A DNA stretch of 64,000 nucleotides from Candidatus Methanophagaceae archaeon (GCA_003194425.1 PQXB01000001.1:135265-199264), one strand, 5' to 3'. Counted from the stretch's first letter, positions 41,832 through 54,224 are shown. The notes: generated by a model from the letters alone, not told the origin. Made by a program: numbers and translations.

Positions 41832-42089
41832 CAACTTCCTCACGCCGTCTGCCAACCCGTGAGCGTAATTTATGCAGCCGAAGGCGGTAAAGAAATCCCC
41901 TTTTTCAAGGTAGTATTTCGCGTCCTCAAAATATGCCTTCGCAAGGCTCAACACCTCTTCTCTTGCTCCTGCAGCACTCGCAGCACCTGCAGCACTCGCA
42001 GCACCTGCAGCACTCGCAGCACCAAGCGACAACGCTTCAAAAAGTGCGATGTCTTTCTTTATCCTACCCGCTTCTTCGTTCAACTTCAC
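41793..42089 (-). CDS. DUF357-like small archaeal protein with an (AASAAG)3 repeat
   Basis: FTAFGCINYAHGLAD motif. 18-nt x3 repeat at ~41965-42020. Convergent 39-nt overlap with the presenilin gene. Confidence 0.4.
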   Translation of the reverse strand: MKLNEEAGRIKKDIALFEALSLGAASAAGAASAAGAASAAGAREEVLSLAKAYFEDAKYYLEKGDFFTAFGCINYAHGLADGVRKLSSQPNDKPENRT

Positions 42090-43129
42090 GATCCTATTTT
42101 AAGTTGCCACGTCTTATTTTTCTTCCCATTCTTTTTTATAGCATCTTCCTCTTCCAGACCCTTAAACTCTAACAAGAATTCGCGGATCCGCCTCTCCGCC
42201 AATTTCACATATTCTTCGCCTGTCTCGTAGCCAACATAATGGCGTCGGGTTTTTATCGCCGCTATTCCCGTCTGCCCGCTCCCCGCGAAAGGGTCTAAAA
42301 CAACCTCGCCCTCGAAGGTGTAAAGTTGAATCAGCCTGTAAGGAAGTTCCACAGGGAACGGTGCTGGGTGTCCAACCCTACGAGCAGATTCCGCAGGGAA
42401 CGTCCAAACGCTTTTAGTAAACTCAAGAAACTCCTCCTTTGAGATTGTGCTTTTTCTTCTTCTTTTCTCGTTCTTGCTCTCTCCTCGGCTAAACCCGCTT
42501 TTAGAAAAGACCAAAATATATTCGTGAATGTCCCGCAGCGTGGGATTAGCAGCAGAAAGCCAGCTCCCCCACGCCGTTGAAGGGCTCGCACTCGCGGCTT
42601 TGTTCCAAATGATTTCCCCTCGCATCAAAAACCCTAAACCGAGCAGGTCCTCAAGCACAAAAGCGTGAAGAGGAATGTACGGCTTTCTTTCTAAATTCGC
42701 GATGTTTACGCAGGCTCTACCGCCGGGCACGAGCACCCTGAAGACCTCTTTCCAAACCGTTCTTAAAAAATTTCTGTATTCTTCAAGCGTTAAATTTTCG
42801 TCGTATTCTTTGCCCGCGTTGTAGGGCGGCGAAGTGACCATTAAATGAACGCTGTCATCTGGCAACTCGTCCATCTGTTCGCTCGATTTACAGAAGATTT
42901 TATCCAACAACTGCGGTGGAATGCGATTTTCCAGAAATTGCACTTTCTTTTCTTTTTCCCCTGGCAAACTTTCGTATAATTTGCTGGCATAAAACGCGGT
43001 GGAATTATGATTTATTCGACCGGGCGAGCCAAACGAGCTTGTTTGCGTCCCTCTTTTTCTTTGACTGTTTGTCATTGTATAATAAAGAGGATTTTGAAAA
43101 ACCCCCGAAAACGAGTGAAAATGCCACAA
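42086..43129 (-). CDS. Beta-class DNA methyltransferase (N4-cytosine or N6-adenine), apparently orphan
   Basis: Motif IV SPPY (VTSPPYNAG) precedes motif I DPFAGSGQTG. 4-nt overlap with the downstream DUF357 gene. Confidence 0.8.
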   Translation of the reverse strand: MWHFHSFSGVFQNPLYYTMTNSQRKRGTQTSSFGSPGRINHNSTAFYASKLYESLPGEKEKKVQFLENRIPPQLLDKIFCKSSEQMDELPDDSVHLMVTSPPYNAGKEYDENLTLEEYRNFLRTVWKEVFRVLVPGGRACVNIANLERKPYIPLHAFVLEDLLGLGFLMRGEIIWNKAASASPSTAWGSWLSAANPTLRDIHEYILVFSKSGFSRGESKNEKRRRKSTISKEEFLEFTKSVWTFPAESARRVGHPAPFPVELPYRLIQLYTFEGEVVLDPFAGSGQTGIAAIKTRRHYVGYETGEEYVKLAERRIREFLLEFKGLEEEDAIKKNGKKNKTWQLKIGS

Positions 43130-43276
43130 AAGTATATAAAGAAGAGAGTGTTACGAGGAGTAAATCAAAATCCTCTAAAGTAAAATATTTCGCAGTCTTG
43201 AAATTTCCAAAAGGGGATTTTTGACGAAGCGGTGAAGCGTAGCGAAACCAAATACGCTCTGTTATACGCTGTGTCT

Positions 43277-43465
43277 TTATTGGACTTTCTTAACTTGCTT
43301 CCCCAACAATTTGATATATTCAAGAAAACTTAACCCTTCGAATTCCGCTTCCTTAGCAATAATTTTCCTCGCGATATGAACTTGCTGTAAAGCCGGGTCG
43401 TCTGGGAACTCCGCTTCCACCGCTCTTCTTATTTCCTCAATATCCTTCTCTTTGACCTTGCTCAT
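43277..43465 (-). CDS. Small protein downstream of the PIN gene (possible antitoxin)
   Basis: 62 aa, 15-nt gap to the PIN gene. Confidence 0.3.
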   Translation of the reverse strand: MSKVKEKDIEEIRRAVEAEFPDDPALQQVHIARKIIAKEAEFEGLSFLEYIKLLGKQVKKVQ

Positions 43466-43480
43466 ATTTTCCCCCCCTTC

Positions 43481-43945
43481 CTATAACAATTCCGCAGGTG
43501 TCATAATCTCTATTTGCCTCAGGTTATTTAAAGTATTTACCCTCCTCACTCTGTCTCTCGTTTTTCTCCTTACAATGTGCCTAAAGTTCCAACTCAAAAG
43601 ACAGTCTATCTCGTTTATCGCTGCGATAGCAATATGGTAGGCATCTTCAGGGTAACCCGCGGGAACTGCGTCATAGCGAATATATTCGCTCGCTACCCTT
43701 TCAACGTCGTCAGTTAAAGCGAGGAGTGAAAATTGCGCGACTGCATCCTTCATTTTGCTTCGGAGTTCTATGTCTGGGGTTCGTTCAATCTCGGCAACCG
43801 TAATTTCGGAGATGAAAGTCTCAAAGTTACCTTTTTCCGCGAAAAAAGATTCTGTGAGCGATTTCCTCTCCGGATTCCGCTCATCAAACCGTGCTGAAAT
43901 TACTGAGGTGTCTAAATACACTTTCCCTCTTCTTCTCAGTTTCAC
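43481..43945 (-). CDS. PIN-domain (VapC-like) toxin; GTG start
   Basis: Acidic residues at PIN positions (VYLDTSVI, ...EIE..., ...EDAYHIAIAAINEID...). Confidence 0.55.
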   Translation of the reverse strand: MKLRRRGKVYLDTSVISARFDERNPERKSLTESFFAEKGNFETFISEITVAEIERTPDIELRSKMKDAVAQFSLLALTDDVERVASEYIRYDAVPAGYPEDAYHIAIAAINEIDCLLSWNFRHIVRRKTRDRVRRVNTLNNLRQIEIMTPAELL

Positions 43946-44014
43946 TTTCCTTTACCTCTTAGGCATTGCATAACTTCGGTATCCACTCGAGTTCACACAT
44001 CCTCAAAATAAGTT

Positions 44015-44323
44015 TTATAGTCCCGTTGCATATTTTACACTCCCTAAAAGGTACGGACGAAGTCCGGGTTTCACCGTCCCATAAATTACAAGGTCAACCC
44101 TGCATTTGAATAAATCCTCAAGGAAAAGTTTTAATTCAATGTAATTGTCAAACGTTTTCTTACTCTTCTCAAATTCCACCAGTATGTCTATGTCACTCCC
44201 TCTTCTTTGTTCATTTCTTACATACGAGCCAAATAATCCTATCTCTTTAACACCAAATCTTTTTATTATCGCTTTGCTCTCCTCGATTTTCTTCAATATT
44301 TCGTTTTCGTCCGCTGTTATCAT
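44015..44323 (-). CDS. Minimal nucleotidyltransferase (MNT) antitoxin-type protein
   Basis: LFGSYVRNEQRRGSDIDILVEF NTase motif. Confidence 0.75.
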   Translation of the reverse strand: MITADENEILKKIEESKAIIKRFGVKEIGLFGSYVRNEQRRGSDIDILVEFEKSKKTFDNYIELKLFLEDLFKCRVDLVIYGTVKPGLRPYLLGSVKYATGL

Positions 44324-44452
44324 TTCTTCTTCACCTCTTTGGCAGAGACGGGCATTTTATAGGGCAAAATGTCCAGAAGGACAAGCTACTTAAGTGAGCA
44401 TAGCGTAAACTTGTATTCTTATACTGTGCCACATCTCTTTATTAACCATAAC

Positions 44453-46285
44453 CTATGTGCGATCGATACACGTATATCTAAATTTCTTTTTTACATTCCA
44501 CACTTTCACTACTGCCCATGTTAAGGCAAGGAACCATGCACTTGGTGAGATTATCTTAGCAAGGATAGCTGAGATAATACACACAACAATAAAGAGCCCT
44601 ATTTCGCCACCCATTAAGAATTGTTTTTCTTTTTCGACCTTGGATTTACACATAGCAATTATTTCATTCTCCTTAATTTCATTCTCCTTATCCCTCTCCT
44701 TGTTTTTTACATCTGACTCAACAACACCTAACGCTTTTTTAATTTTGCCAACTTCTGTTAGACATTGATCTTCACGTTTTTTGTCTTCTGCTATATTAAA
44801 CACCTTGCTAAGTGATTCTAAACAATTTACTAATGTAATACTATCGCCGCATTGCTTAGCATAGCCACCAGCTACAAACAATCTTTTCTGAGCTAAATCC
44901 ATTCTACCTTTCCTTAGATAGCATAGCCCCGCAGCGTAGCTGGAAAGTCCAAGACAATAGGGGTCATAGGTTTTTCCAGAAAGCCATGAAGTCCAGAACA
45001 GAGGATCATTCCCCCTCCACTCCCACTCACCCGGAATCTTGGCAACCATCATGCTGAGGCACTCGATTACCTCCCTATGCCGTCCCATATTCATATACCG
45101 ATCTGCGGTTTTTAATAAGGATTCAAGTGCTTTTTCATACTCTTTTAGAACAATCAGCGCAAGCCCATGATTCTTTAGTGCCTTAGTAACAAGCCATGGA
45201 TCATCACTTCCACGGATGATCTTATCTGACTGTGCTGCAATAAAAGTAGCTTCCTCCTTTGATGGGTCAAGAAGAATTATTTCAGAAAAGAAGTTCTTCC
45301 ATGCCATTTCATTGATACCCGAAGCCCACCTGAGTAGGAATTTATTTTGGCGAGTTTTCATTTTATCTTCTTTACCCTGATCATATTTTTCGTCGGCGTC
45401 TTTATCTAAGAGTCTTGCAAAAATACTCTTTTGGTCCGCGCCTACTAATTTACAATTAGGGCATTCGCGACCAAAAGCTTTGATGTTACCTGTTAGGCTG
45501 ACCTCATTATTCCGCAGCACCCAATAAACACCCTTCGCCGTTTTGGCAGTGCTTAGGATTACTGGAAAAATATCATCGTCGTTGCCACTGTATCCTACAA
45601 TTAAAACGGTGTAGGATCTAAAGACGACACGAAGAAGGTCTGAAAGATCTTTTTTTAGATTAAGTCCTGCCAGTCTAAGAGTAAATATTATGCTTGCTTT
45701 TTCGTCTAAAGTGCCATGAAGCTTAACTACGGGCAGGTGTGACTCGTCTGACCCCTTATTATTCAAGGAGTTTAACAAGCCTTGACGCACAGAATTCACA
45801 TAAAGTTTGTATTTATTAAGGCTTACTTTCTCTAATGCTTTCTCTATATATGTATCAAAATTCGTTGTTAGGACAATTGGTATCTTATATTCACGAGCGA
45901 TATATGCGATATTGGAGTGGTTGCAATTGGGTATGCCCATATTCAAAATATCTATAAAACCAAAGAAATTCTCTCGAAGATTACTATGCAAAATTTGACA
46001 GAACAATTCAGGTTTTATTCTTTTTGTACGACAATTAATAAAACTGTGGAAGTCATCAAGTCCGCTGTGTGCACTTTTTGCGGAATCTATTACAAGATCC
46101 ATTAGCTCCTTCGAGAGTGGACAAGAGGAAGGAGGATCCTTAGAAATCCCCGCACCCACAAAGATAACAAGTTCATTCGACTTTGCTTTTTTAAGCTCTT
46201 GAACAGCACTCTCAAGATCAACCAACTCTCTTAATTCATTTTTTACCATATCTTGCCTTTGACAATTATCTTTTTCTTTAATCAT
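44453..46285 (-). CDS. SIR2_2-domain protein with TPR-like helical middle region and 1-2 C-terminal TM helices (candidate NADase effector)
   Basis: SIR2_2 motifs VIFVGAGIS, VLTTNFD, VVKLHGT. C-terminal IGLFIVVCIISAILAKIISPSAWFLALTWAVV. Confidence 0.7.
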   Translation of the reverse strand: MIKEKDNCQRQDMVKNELRELVDLESAVQELKKAKSNELVIFVGAGISKDPPSSCPLSKELMDLVIDSAKSAHSGLDDFHSFINCRTKRIKPELFCQILHSNLRENFFGFIDILNMGIPNCNHSNIAYIAREYKIPIVLTTNFDTYIEKALEKVSLNKYKLYVNSVRQGLLNSLNNKGSDESHLPVVKLHGTLDEKASIIFTLRLAGLNLKKDLSDLLRVVFRSYTVLIVGYSGNDDDIFPVILSTAKTAKGVYWVLRNNEVSLTGNIKAFGRECPNCKLVGADQKSIFARLLDKDADEKYDQGKEDKMKTRQNKFLLRWASGINEMAWKNFFSEIILLDPSKEEATFIAAQSDKIIRGSDDPWLVTKALKNHGLALIVLKEYEKALESLLKTADRYMNMGRHREVIECLSMMVAKIPGEWEWRGNDPLFWTSWLSGKTYDPYCLGLSSYAAGLCYLRKGRMDLAQKRLFVAGGYAKQCGDSITLVNCLESLSKVFNIAEDKKREDQCLTEVGKIKKALGVVESDVKNKERDKENEIKENEIIAMCKSKVEKEKQFLMGGEIGLFIVVCIISAILAKIISPSAWFLALTWAVVKVWNVKKKFRYTCIDRT

Positions 46286-47361
46286 AGATAGCCTCTATCG
46301 AATATAGCAGCAGTAGGAATTCTTTTACGCACTTCGGACAGAAGGATTTTTTCATCACGCTTTGACAGGGTCGAGGTATTGTATGCCCACCTAAGTCCGT
46401 TTTTTGAATATAAAACCAGAAGCCTGTCAGTTCCAGAAATAATGTTATGCCTTTCGCGTAGGGTTGCTTTCTCAATATCTGACCACCGCAAGCCAAATGG
46501 CCTGCCTAAACCGGAAATAAAAATTCCTTCATCAAGTAATGTTATCTTTTGTAAATGTACAATAATTGTTTGAAGAATAAGATAAAGGGAGGATAATCCC
46601 CCTAAAACGCCCAAGAGGATACTAATTAATCCTGTTTTTTCATACCTGAACCTGATATAAATCAGTAATAAGGCTGTTACAGCGGGGGAAATAGTCCAAA
46701 TAAATGACCGAATAAACGAACGCATAGTTGGTTTAAAAGTTTGACCCATAATCTTTGGTAGAGCAGGGGGTTGGTGACCTTTTATGTACTTTACTAATTC
46801 TCCTATGGTTGTGCCGTAAGGGAAACTTAGCATAAACAGAAACAGCGATAATTCGCCCAGTAGCTGACCCTCTAAGTTTACAAGGCTCCAAATAAAGAGA
46901 TAAAAAGATGAAGTGAGTAAGGCAATAATTGGAGCTCTTTTGTAGAGATGAAAGCCCATTAGTTCAAACATCAGGCTCATCTTATCTGTCCAATCTATAT
47001 TTTCAGTAAGAAAGATTCTCTCCATTTCGACACCCTTTTCAAGTTCAATCAATTGTGCTGCCCGAAGATTATATTCCTCATCCCTTAGCTTAATTCTCTG
47101 CGAAAATGTATCGAATGGATTAATAGAAACTCGTGTTGACCGGCCACAAATATAACCTATTGCAAAAGGAATTGCTACTGTTATTATTCCCAATGGATGA
47201 AAAGGTGCCAAAAGAAAAGAGATTATGATGGCTACTAAATGAGGAACTCCAGCACGCCTAATTCTAAATATTTTGAAAATGACCCAGAAGAATACAAAAC
47301 TTACGCACAAAGTGGTGCCTATGACATACAAAAGTGTCATGTTCTCGTTCATGGTAATCAT
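46282..47361 (-). CDS. Polytopic membrane protein with a C-terminal soluble (PH-like) domain, in operon with the SIR2 gene
   Basis: At least 6 predicted TM helices; 4-nt overlap with the SIR2 gene. Confidence 0.5.
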   Translation of the reverse strand: MITMNENMTLLYVIGTTLCVSFVFFWVIFKIFRIRRAGVPHLVAIIISFLLAPFHPLGIITVAIPFAIGYICGRSTRVSINPFDTFSQRIKLRDEEYNLRAAQLIELEKGVEMERIFLTENIDWTDKMSLMFELMGFHLYKRAPIIALLTSSFYLFIWSLVNLEGQLLGELSLFLFMLSFPYGTTIGELVKYIKGHQPPALPKIMGQTFKPTMRSFIRSFIWTISPAVTALLLIYIRFRYEKTGLISILLGVLGGLSSLYLILQTIIVHLQKITLLDEGIFISGLGRPFGLRWSDIEKATLRERHNIISGTDRLLVLYSKNGLRWAYNTSTLSKRDEKILLSEVRKRIPTAAIFDRGYL

Positions 47362-47367
47362 CTCCTT

Positions 47368-47853
47368 CTATTCTCTTTGTGCTTTGATAATACTATCGAG
47401 AATAATAGAGCAAATTATCCCTCCTGTATACCCTATACTTGGCGCAAGGAGAAAAAAGATAGTGTTGAATTTTAAAATGCCAATAGCCTCAAGCCATTCT
47501 TGGCCGATATCTTTGTTAATGAAGAATGATAATGCGGCAGAAAGAATAGCTATGTTAGCCATAACTATACAAAACCACCCAATACCAAAGAATTTTGCAG
47601 GTGTCAAGATATCAGAACCCATTGCTGAATAAGATAATACGGAAATACTTGAAAATCCGATTCCGAAGATAACGGCAATCACAGGATAAATCACCAACAA
47701 CATTTTCATTTTATTTTCGTACTCTCCGAGGATCTCCCATGAGTTGCTGATTGTACCTTGAAATATTTCCATTGCAATCCACAATGTTAAGTAGAAAAAG
47801 AACAAGTAGCCAAATATAAAGCCGAAGGTTGATGCTTTACTTATTTTTTGCAT
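47368..47853 (-). CDS. Four-TM membrane protein, hypothetical
   Basis: Hydrophobic throughout; 6-nt gap downstream and 13-nt overlap upstream within the operon. Confidence 0.45.
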   Translation of the reverse strand: MQKISKASTFGFIFGYLFFFYLTLWIAMEIFQGTISNSWEILGEYENKMKMLLVIYPVIAVIFGIGFSSISVLSYSAMGSDILTPAKFFGIGWFCIVMANIAILSAALSFFINKDIGQEWLEAIGILKFNTIFFLLAPSIGYTGGIICSIILDSIIKAQRE

Positions 47854-48677
47854 TCTGATTCATCTGCCTTTGAGCTTTTAATCTGTTTGATTTCATCCAG
47901 CATACTTTCTGTTAGTTTTATGTCTTCATATTTTCCTATTTCTCTGTCTATATAAAGACTACGTTCATATTTCTCTTTCGCCATCTCATATTTTCCCTGA
48001 ATATGCTCTATTTCGGCGAGCCTAAAGATAGCACCGCTTATGACAGAAAGTATTTCATGGTTGTTTGGTGACTTGCTGTTCAGTGATTCCGCAATCACAA
48101 GTGCCTTTTCTACTGCCCCGGCTGCTTTGTCTAAATACTGCTGCTGACGATACAGAAGCGACAACTGATAATAAACAGCTACAACGTTTAATTCATGGCA
48201 GATAGATTCCGCATCTGTTTCAGACTTACTCGTAAGACGCTTCTGAATTTCGAGAGCTTGGAGATATAAGAACTCCGCCTTTTTCAACCTATTATTATTC
48301 CGAAGCTCTTCAATGAATTTTTTGGATCTTGGATTGTGCCAGTTTCCGGTGTAAGTGGTCTCATGGAGAAACTTGGCACGGTTATAGAGACGCTGAGATT
48401 TCGGAGTAAGAAATCGAGAGATAAAAAAGACAATTAGTCCACACATAGGAAACGAGATGCTTTCCCAAGAATTGAGGGAGAATTCCAATTTACCGATTGA
48501 CTGCCACACCATCATTCCAATAAAGCAAAATAGAGCAAATGTTACTTTTTTGTTTTTCTGACCCTCCAATCCTAACCTTATCCAACCTTTCTTCCCAATT
48601 TCCCAACCAATCAAAGCATTTGCTATTAATCCCACTACAATAAAGCAATACAGATCGAAAATAAATTGTTGTGTCAT
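47841..48677 (-). CDS. Membrane-anchored TPR-repeat protein (3 N-terminal TM plus TPRs)
   Basis: N-terminal TM helices followed by TPR-like AEFLYLQALEIQKRL / AVYYQLSLLYRQQQYLDKA repeats. Confidence 0.5.
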   Translation of the reverse strand: MTQQFIFDLYCFIVVGLIANALIGWEIGKKGWIRLGLEGQKNKKVTFALFCFIGMMVWQSIGKLEFSLNSWESISFPMCGLIVFFISRFLTPKSQRLYNRAKFLHETTYTGNWHNPRSKKFIEELRNNNRLKKAEFLYLQALEIQKRLTSKSETDAESICHELNVVAVYYQLSLLYRQQQYLDKAAGAVEKALVIAESLNSKSPNNHEILSVISGAIFRLAEIEHIQGKYEMAKEKYERSLYIDREIGKYEDIKLTESMLDEIKQIKSSKADESECKK

Positions 48678-48716
48678 TTTTTTATGTTATTTCCAAACTT
48701 GAGCTCGCACACACTT

Positions 48717-50975
48717 TTATTTATCATCAGAACCCTTCTCTGTTACCAACCTCGGCACGAGCGTCGAGTACCGCCCCAACTGAATCCCGTATTTTTTGTT
48801 GTACTCTGCCATTTCCATCAGTTCGCCAGACCTGTGCCTCGCCCGTTTTATCCGCATTCCCTCAATCTCCCACCCGTGCTCCTCCTTCAACTTCCGCAGC
48901 AACTCCGCCCGCCGCATCACATGCAACTCCTGCTCGGACCGCACGAACAAGTGCCAGTCGTCTGAATATTCGCCAAAGAAATTTTTGTAAGCCTCGTTCT
49001 CCGCCTCCAGACTCGCAAGCCTGGGGTCTCGCAAGGCAAGCGGGCGGTGCAGCAGTTTCGCACTCATCGCGATCGCCTCCTCCTTCGTCTCCACCGGCAC
49101 GAGCATGTGCACTGGACACGGTTCGACCTCCTTCTTCTCACCCGTCACACCGTCGTACATCCACCACTTGCTCCTGTCGTTTTTGTCGCCCAGGAAGAAC
49201 CGCTTGAAGTTGCTTGAACACGAAGGTGAACACGAAGGTGAACACGAAGGTGAACACGAAGGACCGACGACGACAGGAATGCCCGACCTGACGAGACCCG
49301 ACGCAACCGCGAACATCGTCTCCGTCCACGCACCCCAAATTATCGCGACCACGGGCAGCCGAGCGTAGAGGTAGTCGGCAATCTGCGTCCAGTTCGCTTT
49401 CGGCACGTAGCCACTCCCAACCAACGCACCGCGGTAGACCGCAGCAGGAACGTGCGAAATCGCAGTGCAGCCCCCGAAATTCACCAACCCCTTCAGCACT
49501 CCAGCCGCGATGTACTGCTCGAACAAGAACTTCCGCCCCCCTTCCTCCTCGTCAAAATACTTCGCAACGTCCGCAGCAACGCAGCCCGAAACCGTGACAA
49601 GAGCGTTCCGCTCCAGAAAATACCTCGCAATTTCCGCTACTTCTTTCCCGTTCCCTGAACCCTCGCAGTCTCCGCGGTCTCCACAGCCCAGAATATTTAT
49701 CATTCCCGGCCCGTTCCCGCCTAAAATAATCCCGAAGGTCAGGTCCCGCCACTCCAACTCCGACATCGGACCCCGCCCAGCCCGCATAAGAAACTTGTCT
49801 TGCTTTATTTTACCTTTTTTCTTTGGTATTTTTTTCACCCCCACCACCAGCCGAACAGCGAGTTCGCCCGCCTTCTCTGGACCAGAAATTCGCACGCCCG
49901 GCAGGTCCTTCTCCAACACCTCGCTGACCAAATCCTGCACCGTCTTCGCTGACCTCTCCTCTAACTCCAAATCCAACCCGCAGGCGACCACCTTCGCACC
50001 CACCCGCTTCGCCTCCTCTAAAACATCAAGCTCAAAGCACAATTCTCCGCTGACCACGACCACATCGGGAATGCCTGCTCTGAAAACCTCCCTCGCCTTC
50101 ACCGCCGACGCGAGAACCTTTCCGCGTTTGTAAAATCTTGGAATGTCGTGCCCCACCGCACCGACGCCGCAAATTTCTACCGCCTCCTCCAATCCCGCTC
50201 CCGACCTTCTCAAATACTCAACCGCGAACCACGCCGGCAAGAAATCGCTGCCAAGAAAGACCACAACCGGCTTGCTCGTGTCAGCCGCACCGAGACCAAC
50301 TTCGGTCTCGACCGGCGGGAAGTCAGTGTACTCGGTCGCAGGACGCGTGCCTGCGTTGTAGAACCCGAAGCAGCACATTTTTAGCGTCTCTGCAATTTCC
50401 ATCGCGAGAAATGTAAGCGAGCCCGCGTGCAACGCCTTCTCTTCAAATTCCTCCGCACTCTCTCCGCCCTGTTCTTGAGCGAGAAGCAATTTTGAGAGCT
50501 GCGATTCCGCGTAGCACAACGCCCTCTCCGCCTCGCCCAAATCTTTCGTGTAAAACCCGGTCAGCAGTGAGGTGTTCATTGAGGGGTAGGTAACTGACTT
50601 CCCAATCTCAAGTTCCTTCTCTCGCCCAAACCGTTCTACCGAAAAATCAAGCAGACGCCTCGCAACCCCCAACTGCCGAGACAGCCCTTTACAAGCCTCC
50701 TGCAAACTCTGCCTCGCTTGCTTCGCCTGCTCTTCCTTTTTCAGCTTTTCTTCCTTTTTCAGATTTAGTTCGGCGTTCGCGTAGACCGCGGGGTACCTGT
50801 TCAGAAGCACGCTGTCCCACTCTTCGATGTCCGCAGCGTCTGCAAAAATGTTCAACCTCGGCTTCCACTGTTCCAGCTGTCCTCGCTCGCCCATTTCCCT
50901 GAGTATTTCGCGGGCGATTCGTTCCTTCTCTTTCTCTTTCTCCTTCTCTTCCCCCTTCCCCTTCTCTTCCTCCAC
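48717..50975 (-). CDS. Large (752 aa) conserved hypothetical protein with KE-rich N-terminus and a (PSCS)4 repeat
   Basis: Long GC-rich ORF with coding-like composition. 12-nt x4 repeat at ~49207-49262. No family confidently recognised. Confidence 0.5.
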   Translation of the reverse strand: MEEEKGKGEEKEKEKEKERIAREILREMGERGQLEQWKPRLNIFADAADIEEWDSVLLNRYPAVYANAELNLKKEEKLKKEEQAKQARQSLQEACKGLSRQLGVARRLLDFSVERFGREKELEIGKSVTYPSMNTSLLTGFYTKDLGEAERALCYAESQLSKLLLAQEQGGESAEEFEEKALHAGSLTFLAMEIAETLKMCCFGFYNAGTRPATEYTDFPPVETEVGLGAADTSKPVVVFLGSDFLPAWFAVEYLRRSGAGLEEAVEICGVGAVGHDIPRFYKRGKVLASAVKAREVFRAGIPDVVVVSGELCFELDVLEEAKRVGAKVVACGLDLELEERSAKTVQDLVSEVLEKDLPGVRISGPEKAGELAVRLVVGVKKIPKKKGKIKQDKFLMRAGRGPMSELEWRDLTFGIILGGNGPGMINILGCGDRGDCEGSGNGKEVAEIARYFLERNALVTVSGCVAADVAKYFDEEEGGRKFLFEQYIAAGVLKGLVNFGGCTAISHVPAAVYRGALVGSGYVPKANWTQIADYLYARLPVVAIIWGAWTETMFAVASGLVRSGIPVVVGPSCSPSCSPSCSPSCSSNFKRFFLGDKNDRSKWWMYDGVTGEKKEVEPCPVHMLVPVETKEEAIAMSAKLLHRPLALRDPRLASLEAENEAYKNFFGEYSDDWHLFVRSEQELHVMRRAELLRKLKEEHGWEIEGMRIKRARHRSGELMEMAEYNKKYGIQLGRYSTLVPRLVTEKGSDDK

Positions 50976-51285: not shown

Positions 51286-52560
51286 ATGAAAAAAGAAGAG
51301 GTTCTCTTCTCTGCGGAGGAGTGCGAATTCAGAGCCGAGTTGCGAGATTTTCTTGAGCGCGAGGACGCGAAGGGGGCAGAGCGGGAAATATTTGAGCAGG
51401 ATTTTTATCCGCGGGAACTTTACGAGCGGTTGGGGAAAGCGGGTTTCTTGGCGCCGGTGCTGCCCGCGGAGTTCGGCGGTAAGGAAGAGGAAGGCGGGAG
51501 TAAAAGAGGAGGGAGTGAGGGAGGGGGTAAATTGGTGTACGAGGCGGTGTTGGCGGAGGAGCTCGGTGCTGCCTGCGTGCCGCTTGCCTGGATTCACTCA
51601 ACCTCCTCCTACGCCTACGCGACGATTTTGAGGTACGGGAGCGAGGAGCAGAAGAGGCGGTTCTTGCCCGCGATGAAACGGGGCGAGAAGGTCGGTGCTG
51701 TCGCGATAACCGAGCCAGAGGCGGGGAGCGACGTAATGCGGATTCAGACGAGGGCGGAGTTGCGAGCGAGAGGCGGTGAATTTCTGTTAAGCGGCGAAAA
51801 GCGAAACATCACAAACGGGAGCCAAGCAGACTTGCTTTTGGTCTGGGCGGTGACGAACCCCGAGGTTGACCCTGCGCGGGGGCTGAGCGTTTTTATCGTG
51901 GAGCCTGGTGAAGGTGGAGGACCTGGTGAAGGTGGAGGAGAAGGGTTTGAAGTAGTGGAGGATTTCAAGTTGTTAGGCGGGTTTCCGGGGACTGTAAATT
52001 CTCGCCTGCGGTTTGACGAGTTGAGCGTGCCGAGGGGGAACTTGCTCGGCGAAGAGAGCGGGGAGAACGCGGGAGCGAGGATTTTGTTCGACGAGCTCAC
52101 GGTTGAGCGGGTCTTGTACGCGGCGATGCTGGTCGGCGAGGCGAGACCTGTGCTCGAACTCGCAGCGGACTACTCGGCAGAGCGGGAGCAGTTCGGAACG
52201 CAAATAAGCAGGTTCGAGGCGGTGAGCTTCAAAATCGCAGACGCAGCTGCAAAGTTAGAGGCTGCAAAGTTGATGATTTTTTACACTGCGAGGTTGCTCG
52301 ACGCGGACGCGGGCTTCAGTGCAGAGAAGGAGTCAGCAATCTCGAAACTGCTCGCTTCCGAGGCGTTCTACGAAGTCGCTCACAGCACCCTCCAAATTCT
52401 CGGCAGCAGAGGGGTCTCCGACGAGTACCCTGCTGAGTGGGCGTTCAGAATGGCGAGGCTCTCAATGATTCCCGCAGGGACGAACGAGATTATGCGGTTC
52501 ATCGTGCAGCGCGAGATTTACAAGGAGCGCAAGGAGCGTAAGCGTAAGACAAAAACATGA
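51286..52560 (+). CDS. Acyl-CoA dehydrogenase (second copy) with Gly/Glu-rich insertions
   Basis: ACAD domain motifs ([11 protein letters not shown]). 21-nt x2 repeat at ~51898-51945. Confidence 0.8.
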
Positions 52561-53421
52561 ATAAAACAGAAATAGGGTCTGCAACTGCGAAGGGAGGATT
52601 TGTAAATGAAAAGAGTATTTGCAAGAAGTTTAACAGTTGGAAAAAGGATAAAGAGGCTCAAATTTGGCTCAGGATTATGGGATATAAAGTAGAAAAGATT
52701 GATTCTGTAGAAGCAATTCAAATTCCAACCAGAATTAAGAAGAGTGAAATAGAAAAATTTGGGATAAGCGAAGAGGATTTTGAGGGTTAGCGAAGAGGAT
52801 TTTGAGGGTTTGATGCGATTCAAGAAAGCCGACGCTCAGATAAGAATTGTCATTACTATCGGCGAGATTTTGAAGGTAGAGAATTTGTCTTTAAAGAAGG
52901 CTAATTCTGACGCAGATTATAATCAGGTGGATAAGCGGAGGGTTGATTCGTATCAAAAGATGTGGAGTTTTGACGACGAAATAGCCTACTGGTTAAAGCT
53001 TTTCACGGGTGAGAACAATCCTAAATCGTTTGCTAAACTCGTGGGTGAAGTTGAATTGAGAGACAAAAGGAGGTTATTTTTTGATGAAATGCCTGAGGAG
53101 ATTTGGACTAAAATTATAACATTTTTTGAAGAAAATAGGATAATTGTTGTTAGCGATATTTTAAAGGGGCGAGGCGGACTTTCAGCCAACTGGATGCTGG
53201 TCACGAGGTACAACAAAAATGAGGAGACTACTACTTGGACACTCAAAGATATTAACACCGTTATGAATTTCTTTGGTGGGGGGGAGGTAAAAATATCGCC
53301 GAGAGGAAGTTTGTATTTAGGTAAAATCACAATGCAGAGAAAAGGCGGAACTCCAGACCCTACAAAACTACAGTTCAAGATAAAACCCTGTCAGTTGTTT
53401 AGCCTGGGGGAACGACAATGA
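52557..53421 (+). pseudogene. Type II restriction endonuclease-like gene disrupted by a 22-bp tandem duplication (frameshift)
   Basis: ORFs 52557-52790 and 52780-53421 lie in different frames. Exact duplication agcgaagaggattttgagggtt x2 at 52767-52810. Removing one copy restores ...ISEEDFEGLMRFKK... The gene is followed with 4-nt overlap by an MTase. Confidence 0.55.
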
Positions 53422-54224
53422 AAGGAATGAAAATGGAAGTAGACAAAGTGTATTTAGGCGACTGCGTAAAGATTATGAAGACTTTACCAAATAAATCTGT
53501 AGATTTAGTCTTTGCAGACCCGCCGTTCAACATTGGGCTAAAATACGATGTTTATAACGATAACCTTTCGTATGAAAAATATTACAAGTGGTCTGAAGAG
53601 TGGGTAAAAGAGGCTTGCAGGCTACTTAAAAACAGTGGGGCAATTTATGTCGCGATCGGAGACGAATTCGCAGCAGAGCTAAACATAATTCTAAAACGAA
53701 GAGGCTTCTATTTCAGAAACTGGATCGTGTGGCACTACACCTTCGGTCAAAATCAGCGGAAGAAATTTACCCGCGCACACACTCACATTTTATATTTCAC
53801 CAAAGACAAAGCACGATTTACATTTAACGACAAGCACATTCGCGTGCCCTCGGCAAGGCAACTCGTCTACAAAGACAAGCGAGCAAACCCGCTTGGAAAG
53901 ATTCCCGACGATGTCTGGCAGTTTTCGAGAATTTGCGGAACGTTCAAGGAGCGTCTCGGAAGACACCCTTGCCAAATGCCAGAATCCTTACTTGAGCGAA
54001 TAATAAGCGTCAGTTCCAACGAGGGCGACACGGTCTTAGACCCTTTCGGCGGGACAGGGACAACAGCAGCAGTCGCGAAGAAATTGAAGAGACATTTCAT
54101 CACGATGGAAATATCCGAAGAATATTACGACATCATCTTGAGAAGGTTGAATTTAAGAAGAGTGAAGAGTGTGTCAGAGGACGAGGAAGAGGAGCAGAGG
54201 ACTTTATTTGCGGTTTTAAGATAA
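53418..54224 (+). CDS. Beta-class DNA methyltransferase (R-M system partner)
   Basis: Motif IV DPPF near the N-terminus (LVFADPPFNIG), motif I DPFGGTGTT near the C-terminus. Confidence 0.8.
   Translation: MKGMKMEVDKVYLGDCVKIMKTLPNKSVDLVFADPPFNIGLKYDVYNDNLSYEKYYKWSEEWVKEACRLLKNSGAIYVAIGDEFAAELNIILKRRGFYFRNWIVWHYTFGQNQRKKFTRAHTHILYFTKDKARFTFNDKHIRVPSARQLVYKDKRANPLGKIPDDVWQFSRICGTFKERLGRHPCQMPESLLERIISVSSNEGDTVLDPFGGTGTTAAVAKKLKRHFITMEISEEYYDIILRRLNLRRVKSVSEDEEEEQRTLFAVLR

Follow-up and report, generated by a model that had tools for sequence, protein, structure and literature searches.

A membrane-anchored SIR2 cassette in an archaeal genome, a candidate NAD+-depleting defence system

SIR2 domains which cleave NAD+ (NADases) are established effectors of abortive infection, and in type I Thoeris and SIR2-HerA these effectors are activated by oligomerisation. 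To our knowledge, the characterised SIR2 NADases with which we compared our locus are all soluble proteins whose activation depends on soluble sensors (a nucleotide signal, Argonaute, an ATPase or direct contact with a viral protein), and we know of few defence mechanisms which have been tested in archaea. Here we describe a cassette of four genes, g1 to g4, in which a SIR2 protein with a predicted membrane anchor is encoded together with three membrane proteins. It lies in a 64,000-nt stretch of DNA from a Candidatus Methanophagaceae archaeon (GCA_003194425.1, PQXB01000001.1:135265-199264), called the window below, and coordinates are those of the window unless another locus is named. Our evidence consists of sequence comparison and predicted structures, from which the function of the cassette is inferred throughout. 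Our preferred reading, which we hold at a probability of roughly 55%, is that the cassette encodes a membrane-embedded, NAD+-depleting abortive-infection (antiviral or conflict) system, with the g4 SIR2 domain as its effector. The genes and their parts are:

47841..48677, minus strand: g1, 278 aa, three transmembrane (TM) helices (residues ~2-28, 45-62 and 70-92) and a TPR domain
47844-48332, minus strand: predicted cytoplasmic TPR domain of g1, residues ~116-278
47368..47853, minus strand: g2, 161 aa, four TM helices without a soluble domain, overlapping g1 by 13 nt
46282..47361, minus strand: g3, 359 aa, polytopic, made of two modules
g3 residues 1 to ~200: module g3N, several TM helices and a conserved loop, GRST..NP.D.FS
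46285-46749, minus strand: module g3C, g3 residues 205-359, a TM hairpin and a predicted cytoplasmic PH-like domain
46288-46548, minus strand: PH-like domain of g3, residues 272-358, with the motif R-E-R-H-N-x2-S-G-x-D
44453..46285, minus strand: g4, 610 aa, a SIR2_2 domain, a TPR-like solenoid and a TM hairpin
45410-46216, minus strand: SIR2_2 domain of g4, residues 24-292
g4 motifs: GAGIS (residues 44-48), TTNFD (140-144), KLHGT with the catalytic-type H190, and GYSGNDDD (231-238)
44729-45379, minus strand: TPR-like alpha-solenoid of g4, residues 303-519
g4 residues 523-538: disordered acidic/basic linker
44477-44665, minus strand: C-terminal TM hairpin of g4, residues 541-603
g4 after the hairpin: basic tail with the motif K-x-W-N..K....Y..I-D-R

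The four open reading frames (ORFs) span 44453-48677 (4.2 kb) on the minus strand, and a mechanical ORF list reproduced the coordinates and the tight coupling which had been reported in the first-pass annotation: g1 and g2 overlap by 13 nt, g2 and g3 are separated by 6 nt, and g3 and g4 overlap by 4 nt. Overlapping or near-abutting junctions were also kept in other loci. By sequence comparison we take g1 to g4 to be real genes and not chance ORFs, since homologues of the same length and in the same order were found at 27-73% identity on unrelated contigs.

The comparisons identify g4 as a defence-type SIR2 protein with an intact active site, for which NADase activity is predicted. Pfam SIR2_2 (PF13289) matched residues 137-261 at E = 1e-15 (58.5 bits, cut-off 24.5). 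In an alignment of 21 family members G44, A45, G46 and S48 were at least 90% conserved, and N142, D144, H190, G191 and the GYSGxDxD motif were invariant. A profile search against PDB sequences matched KomC (8zsf) at 5.4e-12, with the catalytic H146 of KomC aligned to H190, followed by FAM118B, SPARSA SIR2-APAZ, DSR2 and SIR2-HerA, classical Sir2 appearing only at 2e-3. In the AlphaFold2 (AF2) model of g4 (pLDDT 84, pTM 0.80) the SIR2 fold is followed by a helical solenoid and, beyond a disordered linker, by a pair of long helices (541-579 and 584-603); in Foldseek the best match of the model was the SPARSA SIR2 (8jl0_A, 2.7e-6), with DSR2 at 5e-6 and TPR proteins matching the middle domain. 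The first-pass annotation had made its proposal depend on g4 not being a housekeeping sirtuin, and we find that it is not one: NCBIfam deacylase models of the PRK00481 type scored 15-18 bits on g4 against cut-offs of 221-243, Pfam SIR2 (PF02146) was not reported for g4 in the Pfam search, the relatives found are defence NADases, and the Cys4 zinc-ribbon module is absent from g4, which has ~45 residues and no Cys pairs between TTNFD (140-144) and HG (190-191). An effector of NADase type is therefore suggested by the SIR2_2 score, the invariant N142, D144 and H190, the closeness of antiphage NADases and the failure of the deacylase models.

Helices 541-579 and 584-603 coincide with the sole hydrophobic stretch of g4 by hydropathy, and the TM hairpin and basic tail are conserved across the family. 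Sequence and models agree in placing the SIR2 domain at the cytoplasmic face of the membrane, to which it would be pinned by the C-terminal hairpin. Positive-inside charge counts placed the TPR domain of g1 and the basic tail of g4 in the cytoplasm, and by sequence and models all of the sizeable soluble domains of the set are predicted to be cytoplasmic, with short external loops.

The remaining domain composition given in the first-pass annotation, including the 3-TM and TPR parts of g1, the 4-TM g2, the polytopic g3 with a soluble C-terminal domain and the order of SIR2_2 motifs, TPR-like middle and TM segment in g4, was reproduced by hydropathy, Pfam and AF2, and the soluble domain of g3 could be specified as PH-like. 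Hydropathy gave 3 TM helices in g1, 4 in g2 and at least 5 broad hydrophobic segments in g3, for which AF2 shows ~8 helices, and the four-protein set contains roughly 15-17 TM helices in total. In g1, Pfam matched TPR_2 at E = 4e-9, and TPR_12 and TPR_8 also matched; the family alignment contains 50 invariant columns and a strongly conserved juxtamembrane stretch (SRFLxPRSQRLYxRAKFLHETTYTGDW), with conservation of 0.53-0.69 across the TM and juxtamembrane part versus 0.36-0.42 in the TPR part. In g4 conservation was 0.40 in the TPR region, 0.46 in the SIR2 domain and 0.34 in the TM regions, so that the TPR regions are the least conserved soluble parts of both g1 and g4, and it is possible from these values, and from the differences clustered in the g1 TPR region of a strain variant (L040, below), that they act as variable sensors. 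We rejected the idea that the g1 TPR domain and the g4 solenoid are paralogues (hhalign probability 11%). Neither g2 nor g3 had a match in Pfam, NCBIfam or PADLOC. Orthologues of g2, at 26-73% identity, fill the equivalent slot of 7 loci, among them a reduced cassette (L005) and one from Acidobacteriota (L017). Conservation of the N-terminus among these orthologues supports the 161-aa start of g2 over the 134-aa start chosen by gene callers in four contigs identical to part of the window (L034-L037). Residues 272-358 of g3 form a PH-like fold, with a beta-sandwich, a C-terminal helix cap and significant structural matches, the best of which were eukaryotic GRAM/PH domains. Pfam, PADLOC and NCBIfam searches found no enzymatic domain and no ATPase domain in g1-g3.

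To determine how widely the cassette occurs we searched 5.8 billion proteins for relatives of g4 with a word-indexed search, and gene contexts were fetched for divergent members and by a metagenome scan. At the sensitivity of this search ~22 full-length relatives of g4 were found, at 31-100% identity. None was found in IMG/VR or PLSDB, and a viral or plasmid origin was rejected for this reason. The complete four-gene cassette was found in at least 7 independent metagenomic contexts, so the synteny in other genomes on which the first-pass annotation had staked its proposal does exist. These contexts include (lengths and identities to the window in the order g1/g2/g3/g4):

L008: 277/161/351/611 aa, 71/73/60/60% identity
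L004: 273/162/351/585 aa, 52/47/49/48% identity
L001: 50/45/50/47% identity
L033: 275/162/352/618 aa, 43/31/43/39% identity
L002: 271/163/366/604 aa, 39/27/33/32% identity
L043/45: four genes in the same order

A g1 orthologue takes the first position of the cassette in all six of these, and the parallel divergence of all four proteins across loci points to co-inheritance as a unit. Every full-length g4 with enough flanking DNA has g3, or its g3C module, directly upstream, and a hidden Markov model of g3C in its short form had no match in ~50 loci which hold only distantly related SIR2 domains. By gene order, the universal and obligate partner of g4 is thus g3, strictly the g3C module (2-TM and PH), and g1 and g2 appear to be usual but dispensable. 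The earlier claim of three dedicated membrane partners is thereby qualified: only g3 is universal, and g1 and g2 are missing or replaced in L007, L005 and L017. The cassette is reduced to g3 and g4 in an archaeal metagenome-assembled genome (MAG; L007/L009/L047). In L005 and L006 a TM-anchored phosphoribosyltransferase-like protein sits in the g1 slot, and after it come a g2-like protein, a g3 of only 154 aa (hairpin and PH) and g4. The Acidobacteriota locus L017 has g2, a short g3 and g4, and counts only as weak evidence because of its frameshifts, which are probably nanopore errors or decay.

Two of these loci showed further features. In L005 (581-6304, same in L006) the protein in the g1 slot matches PF00156 (2.9e-7), and an extra soluble 625-aa SIR2-TPR protein of the pAgo-associated SIR2 type (PADLOC 1.4e-30) is encoded just upstream in L005. 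In L040, a 98.2%-identical variant of the low-GC island around the cassette, 49 of the 73 differences fall in the C-terminal TPR region of g1 and the g1/g2 junction (L040 1-1100, window 47800-48912), with two 1-nt deletions which break g1 and with g2-g4 at 97-100% identity; g1 may be decaying here, or the pattern may come from recombination or from errors in sequencing.

The cassette is carried by archaeal MAGs, by one Acidobacteriota MAG and by contigs of Gram-negative type which encode sigma-54 regulators or TonB-dependent receptors. GC content of the cassette ranges from 0.31 to 0.61 across hosts and is far below that of the flanks in the window and in L008, the flanks differ in every locus, and serine recombinases adjoin the cassette in some loci. 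The cassette is best explained, on this comparative evidence, as one horizontally mobile or acquired operon. Its neighbours include a CBASS cyclase (5.6e-97), NucC (3.6e-108), a Cas10 fragment, a CHAT-TPR protein and serine recombinases in L002; McrBC-like genes, a PDC-S02/DUF1016 gene and a resolvase in L001; an RHS toxin in L033; and, in the window, a methyltransferase, PIN and MNT genes and the remnant of a HinP1I-type restriction-modification (R-M) system 4 kb away.

We also examined the wider family of g3 with an exhaustive profile search of 1.84 billion representatives, a word-indexed search with g3C having given only 4 matches. The profile search gave 129 matches, few of them full length; they include ~70 clusters of ~150-aa proteins matching only the hairpin and PH module and ~10 proteins of 190-200 aa matching only the N-terminal half. 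As g3N-like and g3C-like parts are separate genes elsewhere, g3 is a fusion of two modules. One ~150-aa homologue of g3C (P0072, E = 5e-30) lies directly upstream of a TIR_2 protein, in the following locus:

L081, 286-4757 (same in L082): DUF4062-like gene, 240-aa 6-TM protein, 150-aa g3C homologue and 881-aa TIR_2 protein

The 881-aa protein begins with a TPR region and also carries a TIR_2 domain and at least 6 TM segments; TIR_2, RelA/SpoT-RyR and NUDIX genes lie downstream of it. The g1 profile matches its TPR region at 3e-10, possibly through generic TPR similarity, and its partner proteins have no match in PADLOC-DB 2.0. By its gene order L081 looks like a TIR counterpart of the SIR2 cassette, produced by a SIR2-to-TIR effector swap; such swaps on one accessory chassis are known in immune systems, for example SPARSA and SPARTA. 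Because SIR2 and TIR domains both cleave NAD+, NAD+ cleavage is indicated as the shared output, and because the same PH-type partner accompanies the TIR effector in L081, NADase effectors would be interchangeable on one membrane chassis. A broader proposal, which we make tentatively and at somewhat less than even odds, is that g3C is the constant chassis of an unrecognised cross-domain class of membrane-embedded immune complexes, of which the window would hold an archaeal example, and that this chassis would couple a membrane-level infection signal to anchored NAD+-cleaving effectors with TPRs, SIR2 in the window and TIR in L081, which can be swapped. The g3C module (hairpin and PH) was also found fused to the C-terminus of larger proteins (P0115 in L079, 840-2861, and P0076), one of which, a protein of 673 aa that matches nothing in Pfam, has ~500 helical residues at its N-terminus; the fusions lie in contexts too short to reveal any effector.

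In the mechanism which we propose, g1-g4 would assemble through their ~15-17 TM helices into a complex which holds the SIR2 domain inactive. An infection cue, which might be perceived at the membrane (e.g. genome injection or the insertion of viral membrane proteins) or might be a viral protein bound by the variable TPR surfaces, would release or oligomerise the SIR2 domains. These would then deplete NAD+ and arrest the infected cell ahead of virus release, as in DSR2, ThsA, SIR2-HerA and SPARSA. If true, a SIR2 domain in a membrane complex, with a PH-like partner common to a TIR version, would mean sensing at the cell membrane, a mode different from that of the soluble systems, and would add a defence system working in archaea. 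The small size of the cassette (4.2 kb) and its easily recognised active-site residues make it directly testable.

Several points weigh against this interpretation. The family is very rare, at ~22 full-length g4 proteins, and absent from plasmid and viral collections, so no defence-enrichment statistic could be computed. A defence context is clear in only ~3 of ~8 independent neighbourhoods, the others being unannotated or ordinary, e.g. the tannase, TonB-dependent receptor and IS200 genes of L044. A model with four subunits may not hold throughout the family, since g1 is broken in the near-identical variant L040 and some relatives lack it, and the contacts between the subunits are conjectural. 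Some SIR2_2 proteins may be ADP-ribosyltransferases or deacylases and not NADases. Defence function, NADase activity, the complex, its trigger and the protection that it would give are all inferred.

The same membrane segments could also be read as the lethal part of the system. TM effectors of CBASS, Pycsar and type II Thoeris disrupt membranes, and the g4 hairpin and the TM bundles of g1-g3 might likewise oligomerise into a pore or lesion, with the SIR2 domain as sensor or co-effector. The ~15-17 TM helices per set, the purely membrane-embedded g2, the family-wide conservation of the g4 hairpin and basic tail, and the at least 6 TM segments of the TIR sister protein would all fit such a membrane-disrupting output. 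We nevertheless consider it improbable: the invariance of the catalytic SIR2 residues across the family favours an enzymatic role, conservation in g4 is lower in the TM regions than in the SIR2 domain (0.34 versus 0.46), and no likeness to known pore-forming effectors was found, the sole PADLOC match over the tail being PD-T4-2_B at E = 0.038.

The first-pass annotation had also placed the cassette in a region of lower GC with toxin-antitoxin genes and an orphan methyltransferase, and this description holds: GC is 38% in the cassette, 52% in the remaining window and ~52-55% in the surrounding genome. The elements of the island and its edges are:

43000..48716, no strand: low-GC accessory island (GC 0.31-0.49), from the GC profile and domain searches
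48678..48716, minus strand: 39-nt spacer between the stop of the CODH/prismane-like gene and the ATG of g1, left edge of the island
44015-44323: MNT nucleotidyltransferase, inside the island (PADLOC PDC-S09, 2.7e-33)
43481-43945: PIN-domain protein, inside the island, from domain searches
42086-43129: type II N4/N6 methyltransferase, adjoining the island, without an adjacent endonuclease

GC steps sharply from 0.545 to 0.385 at ~48.8 kb, immediately past the stop of the upstream CODH/prismane-like gene, whose stop codon is straddled by the A/T-rich GATAAATAAAAG. The opposite edge is gradual, passing through the MNT nucleotidyltransferase, the PIN protein, a 62-aa ORF and the methyltransferase. 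The MNT nucleotidyltransferase, in the region 43277-44323, has no adjacent HEPN partner and is followed by the PIN protein and the 62-aa ORF, which belongs to no family. A promoter of the cassette could sit only in the 48678-48716 spacer or at the upstream gene's 3' end; scans for sigma-70 promoters and terminators gave as many promoter-like sites as in shuffled sequence, this consensus being uninformative for an archaeal host. No flanking direct repeats were found around the island and no tRNA or other Rfam match in the window. Other genes of the window, including those for an archaeal-type presenilin/SPP, FrhB, a CODH-like protein and acyl-CoA dehydrogenases, suggest by their sequence an archaeal host.

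Contigs from four other samples (L034-L037, from NCBI, ENA, JGI and Logan), all 4.5-5 kb long, are 100% identical to window 43858-48915, including the junction with the host CODH-like gene. We rejected these short contigs as evidence of mobility since the presence of the same host-gene junction means that they show only fragmented assembly. The identical island in four samples indicates that the organism recurs across datasets, yet assemblies break around the island.

The window also holds a second low-GC islet (52557-54224) with an R.HinP1I-like restriction endonuclease (PF11463, 5e-53) and an N4/N6 methyltransferase (53418-54224). The endonuclease gene is split by a perfect 22-nt tandem duplication of AGCGAAGAGGATTTTGAGGGTT (52768-52789 and 52790-52811), which shifts the frame onto a TAG stop. 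With the endonuclease frame broken while the partner methyltransferase is intact, this R-M system looks from its sequence to have been freshly inactivated. High-GC host genes also carry in-frame micro-repeats (window positions 41965-42023 and 49215-49262): the unit is 9 nt long for a DUF357 protein, with AAGAAS repeats, and 12 nt long within the CODH/prismane-like gene, the translation of which also shows similar SCSP repeats.

The company of PIN and MNT toxin-antitoxin-type genes in the low-GC island, the tight coupling of the four genes and the movement of the cassette among very different genomes are all compatible with an addiction or toxin-antitoxin-like module which stabilises the island. 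Here g1-g3 would constitutively inhibit g4, an NADase toxin, the cell would die if the locus were lost or the proteins fell out of balance, and antiviral protection would be secondary, if it occurs at all. This is unlikely, in our judgement, as three large membrane proteins would make an unusually costly antitoxin, variable TPR surfaces and a SIR2-to-TIR swap are more typical of sensor-effector immunity than of simple toxin-antitoxin pairs, and g1 is disrupted in L040 where g4 is not lost. A function outside conflict, with g4 as a membrane-tethered sirtuin-like deacylase or ADP-ribosyltransferase modifying membrane or envelope proteins on TPR and PH scaffolds, can draw on the sirtuin fold, which includes deacylases and ADP-ribosyltransferases, on the generic nature of TPR and PH scaffolds and on the several neighbourhoods without recognisable defence genes, but is still less likely, given deacylase models far under their cut-offs, no zinc-ribbon module, nearest structures that are antiphage NADases, a parallel TIR version which points to NAD+ cleavage as the common chemistry, and a patchy cross-domain distribution, atypical GC and variable flanks which misfit a housekeeping role.

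An NAD+-depleting abortive-infection system anchored in the membrane is the reading which we compared with named systems, using PADLOC-DB 2.0, Pfam, NCBIfam, PDB and the full-text literature. No PADLOC-DB 2.0 family matched g1, g2 or g3 at E ≤ 0.1, and g4 matched over its SIR2 core only, with pAgo-associated SIR2, PDC-S65, LmuA and ThsA as best matches; the set therefore maps to no named system tested, as had been proposed. Searches of the full-text literature turned up neither a SIR2 system anchored to the membrane nor any SIR2- or TIR-based system partnered by a PH-type membrane protein, no description of a PH-type membrane protein linked to an NADase was found in the literature, and a recent survey of TIR systems does not describe a TIR and PH-type membrane cassette. 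The original proposal of an undescribed membrane-associated NADase defence system is accordingly supported as a candidate, with its defence role and NADase activity predicted from sequence. Its statement that an ATPase or TIR sensor is lacking also agrees with the Pfam and PADLOC searches, in which g1-g3 had no ATPase match and g1-g4 no SLOG or TIR match.

Several candidate memberships were rejected on these searches. For type I Thoeris, in addition to the lack of SLOG or TIR matches in g1-g4, no TIR gene is conserved in the neighbourhoods of the cassette. For SIR2-HerA (Nezha), g1-g3 have no ATPase domain and no HerA-type ATPase is conserved beside g4 elsewhere; both ThsA and SIR2-HerA gave weak matches to g4. 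For AVAST type 5 (SIR2-STAND, Avs5), g4 has no P-loop/NACHT match and its AF2 model contains only the SIR2 domain, solenoid and hairpin. The PADLOC PDC-S65 match (E = 2.9e-10) covers only profile positions 122-256 of 592 (g4 residues 118-259). The bPH_2 family (PF03703; YdbS-YdbT type, PDB 2fb5) resembles g3C at the level of fold only, and 9 members of g3C had no Pfam match at E ≤ 1, bPH_2 included.

The closest likenesses were as follows. SPARSA provides the best Foldseek match (8jl0_A, 2.7e-6) and pAgo-associated SIR2 models the best PADLOC match (2.5e-13); the fold match covers the g4 SIR2 core only (residues 112-261), the PADLOC match only profile positions 97-244 of 558, and membership was rejected as neither APAZ nor a pAgo gene was found in any locus. 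The solved SIR2 nearest to g4 by profile is KomC (Kongming system), in which the TTN(F/Y)D motif and the catalytic His align with those of g4, but which is a 264-aa soluble SIR2-only protein with soluble partners, whereas the partners of g4 are membrane proteins. The next sequence tier consists of soluble SIR2-TPR proteins (P0023-P0029 and the 625-aa protein of L005), which like g4 have SIR2_2 followed by TPR and match ~36-48% of its length, without the TM hairpin or a g3 partner. DSR2 likewise combines an N-terminal SIR2_2 NADase-type domain and an alpha-helical repeat in one polypeptide (Foldseek E = 5e-6, profile match 6.9e-5), and by analogy the two likely share a logic in which the helical repeat senses a viral protein and NAD+ is then lost. 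However, DSR2 is a soluble single-gene system of ~1000 aa, whereas g4 has 610 aa and a TM hairpin and is always accompanied by g3, and membership was rejected, the NCBIfam Dsr2 model scoring 19 bits against a cut-off of 1400 over g4 residues 138-202 only. From these comparisons it is credible that the cassette, matching no named system in PADLOC-DB 2.0, is a variant of SIR2-based immunity and not another kind of system.

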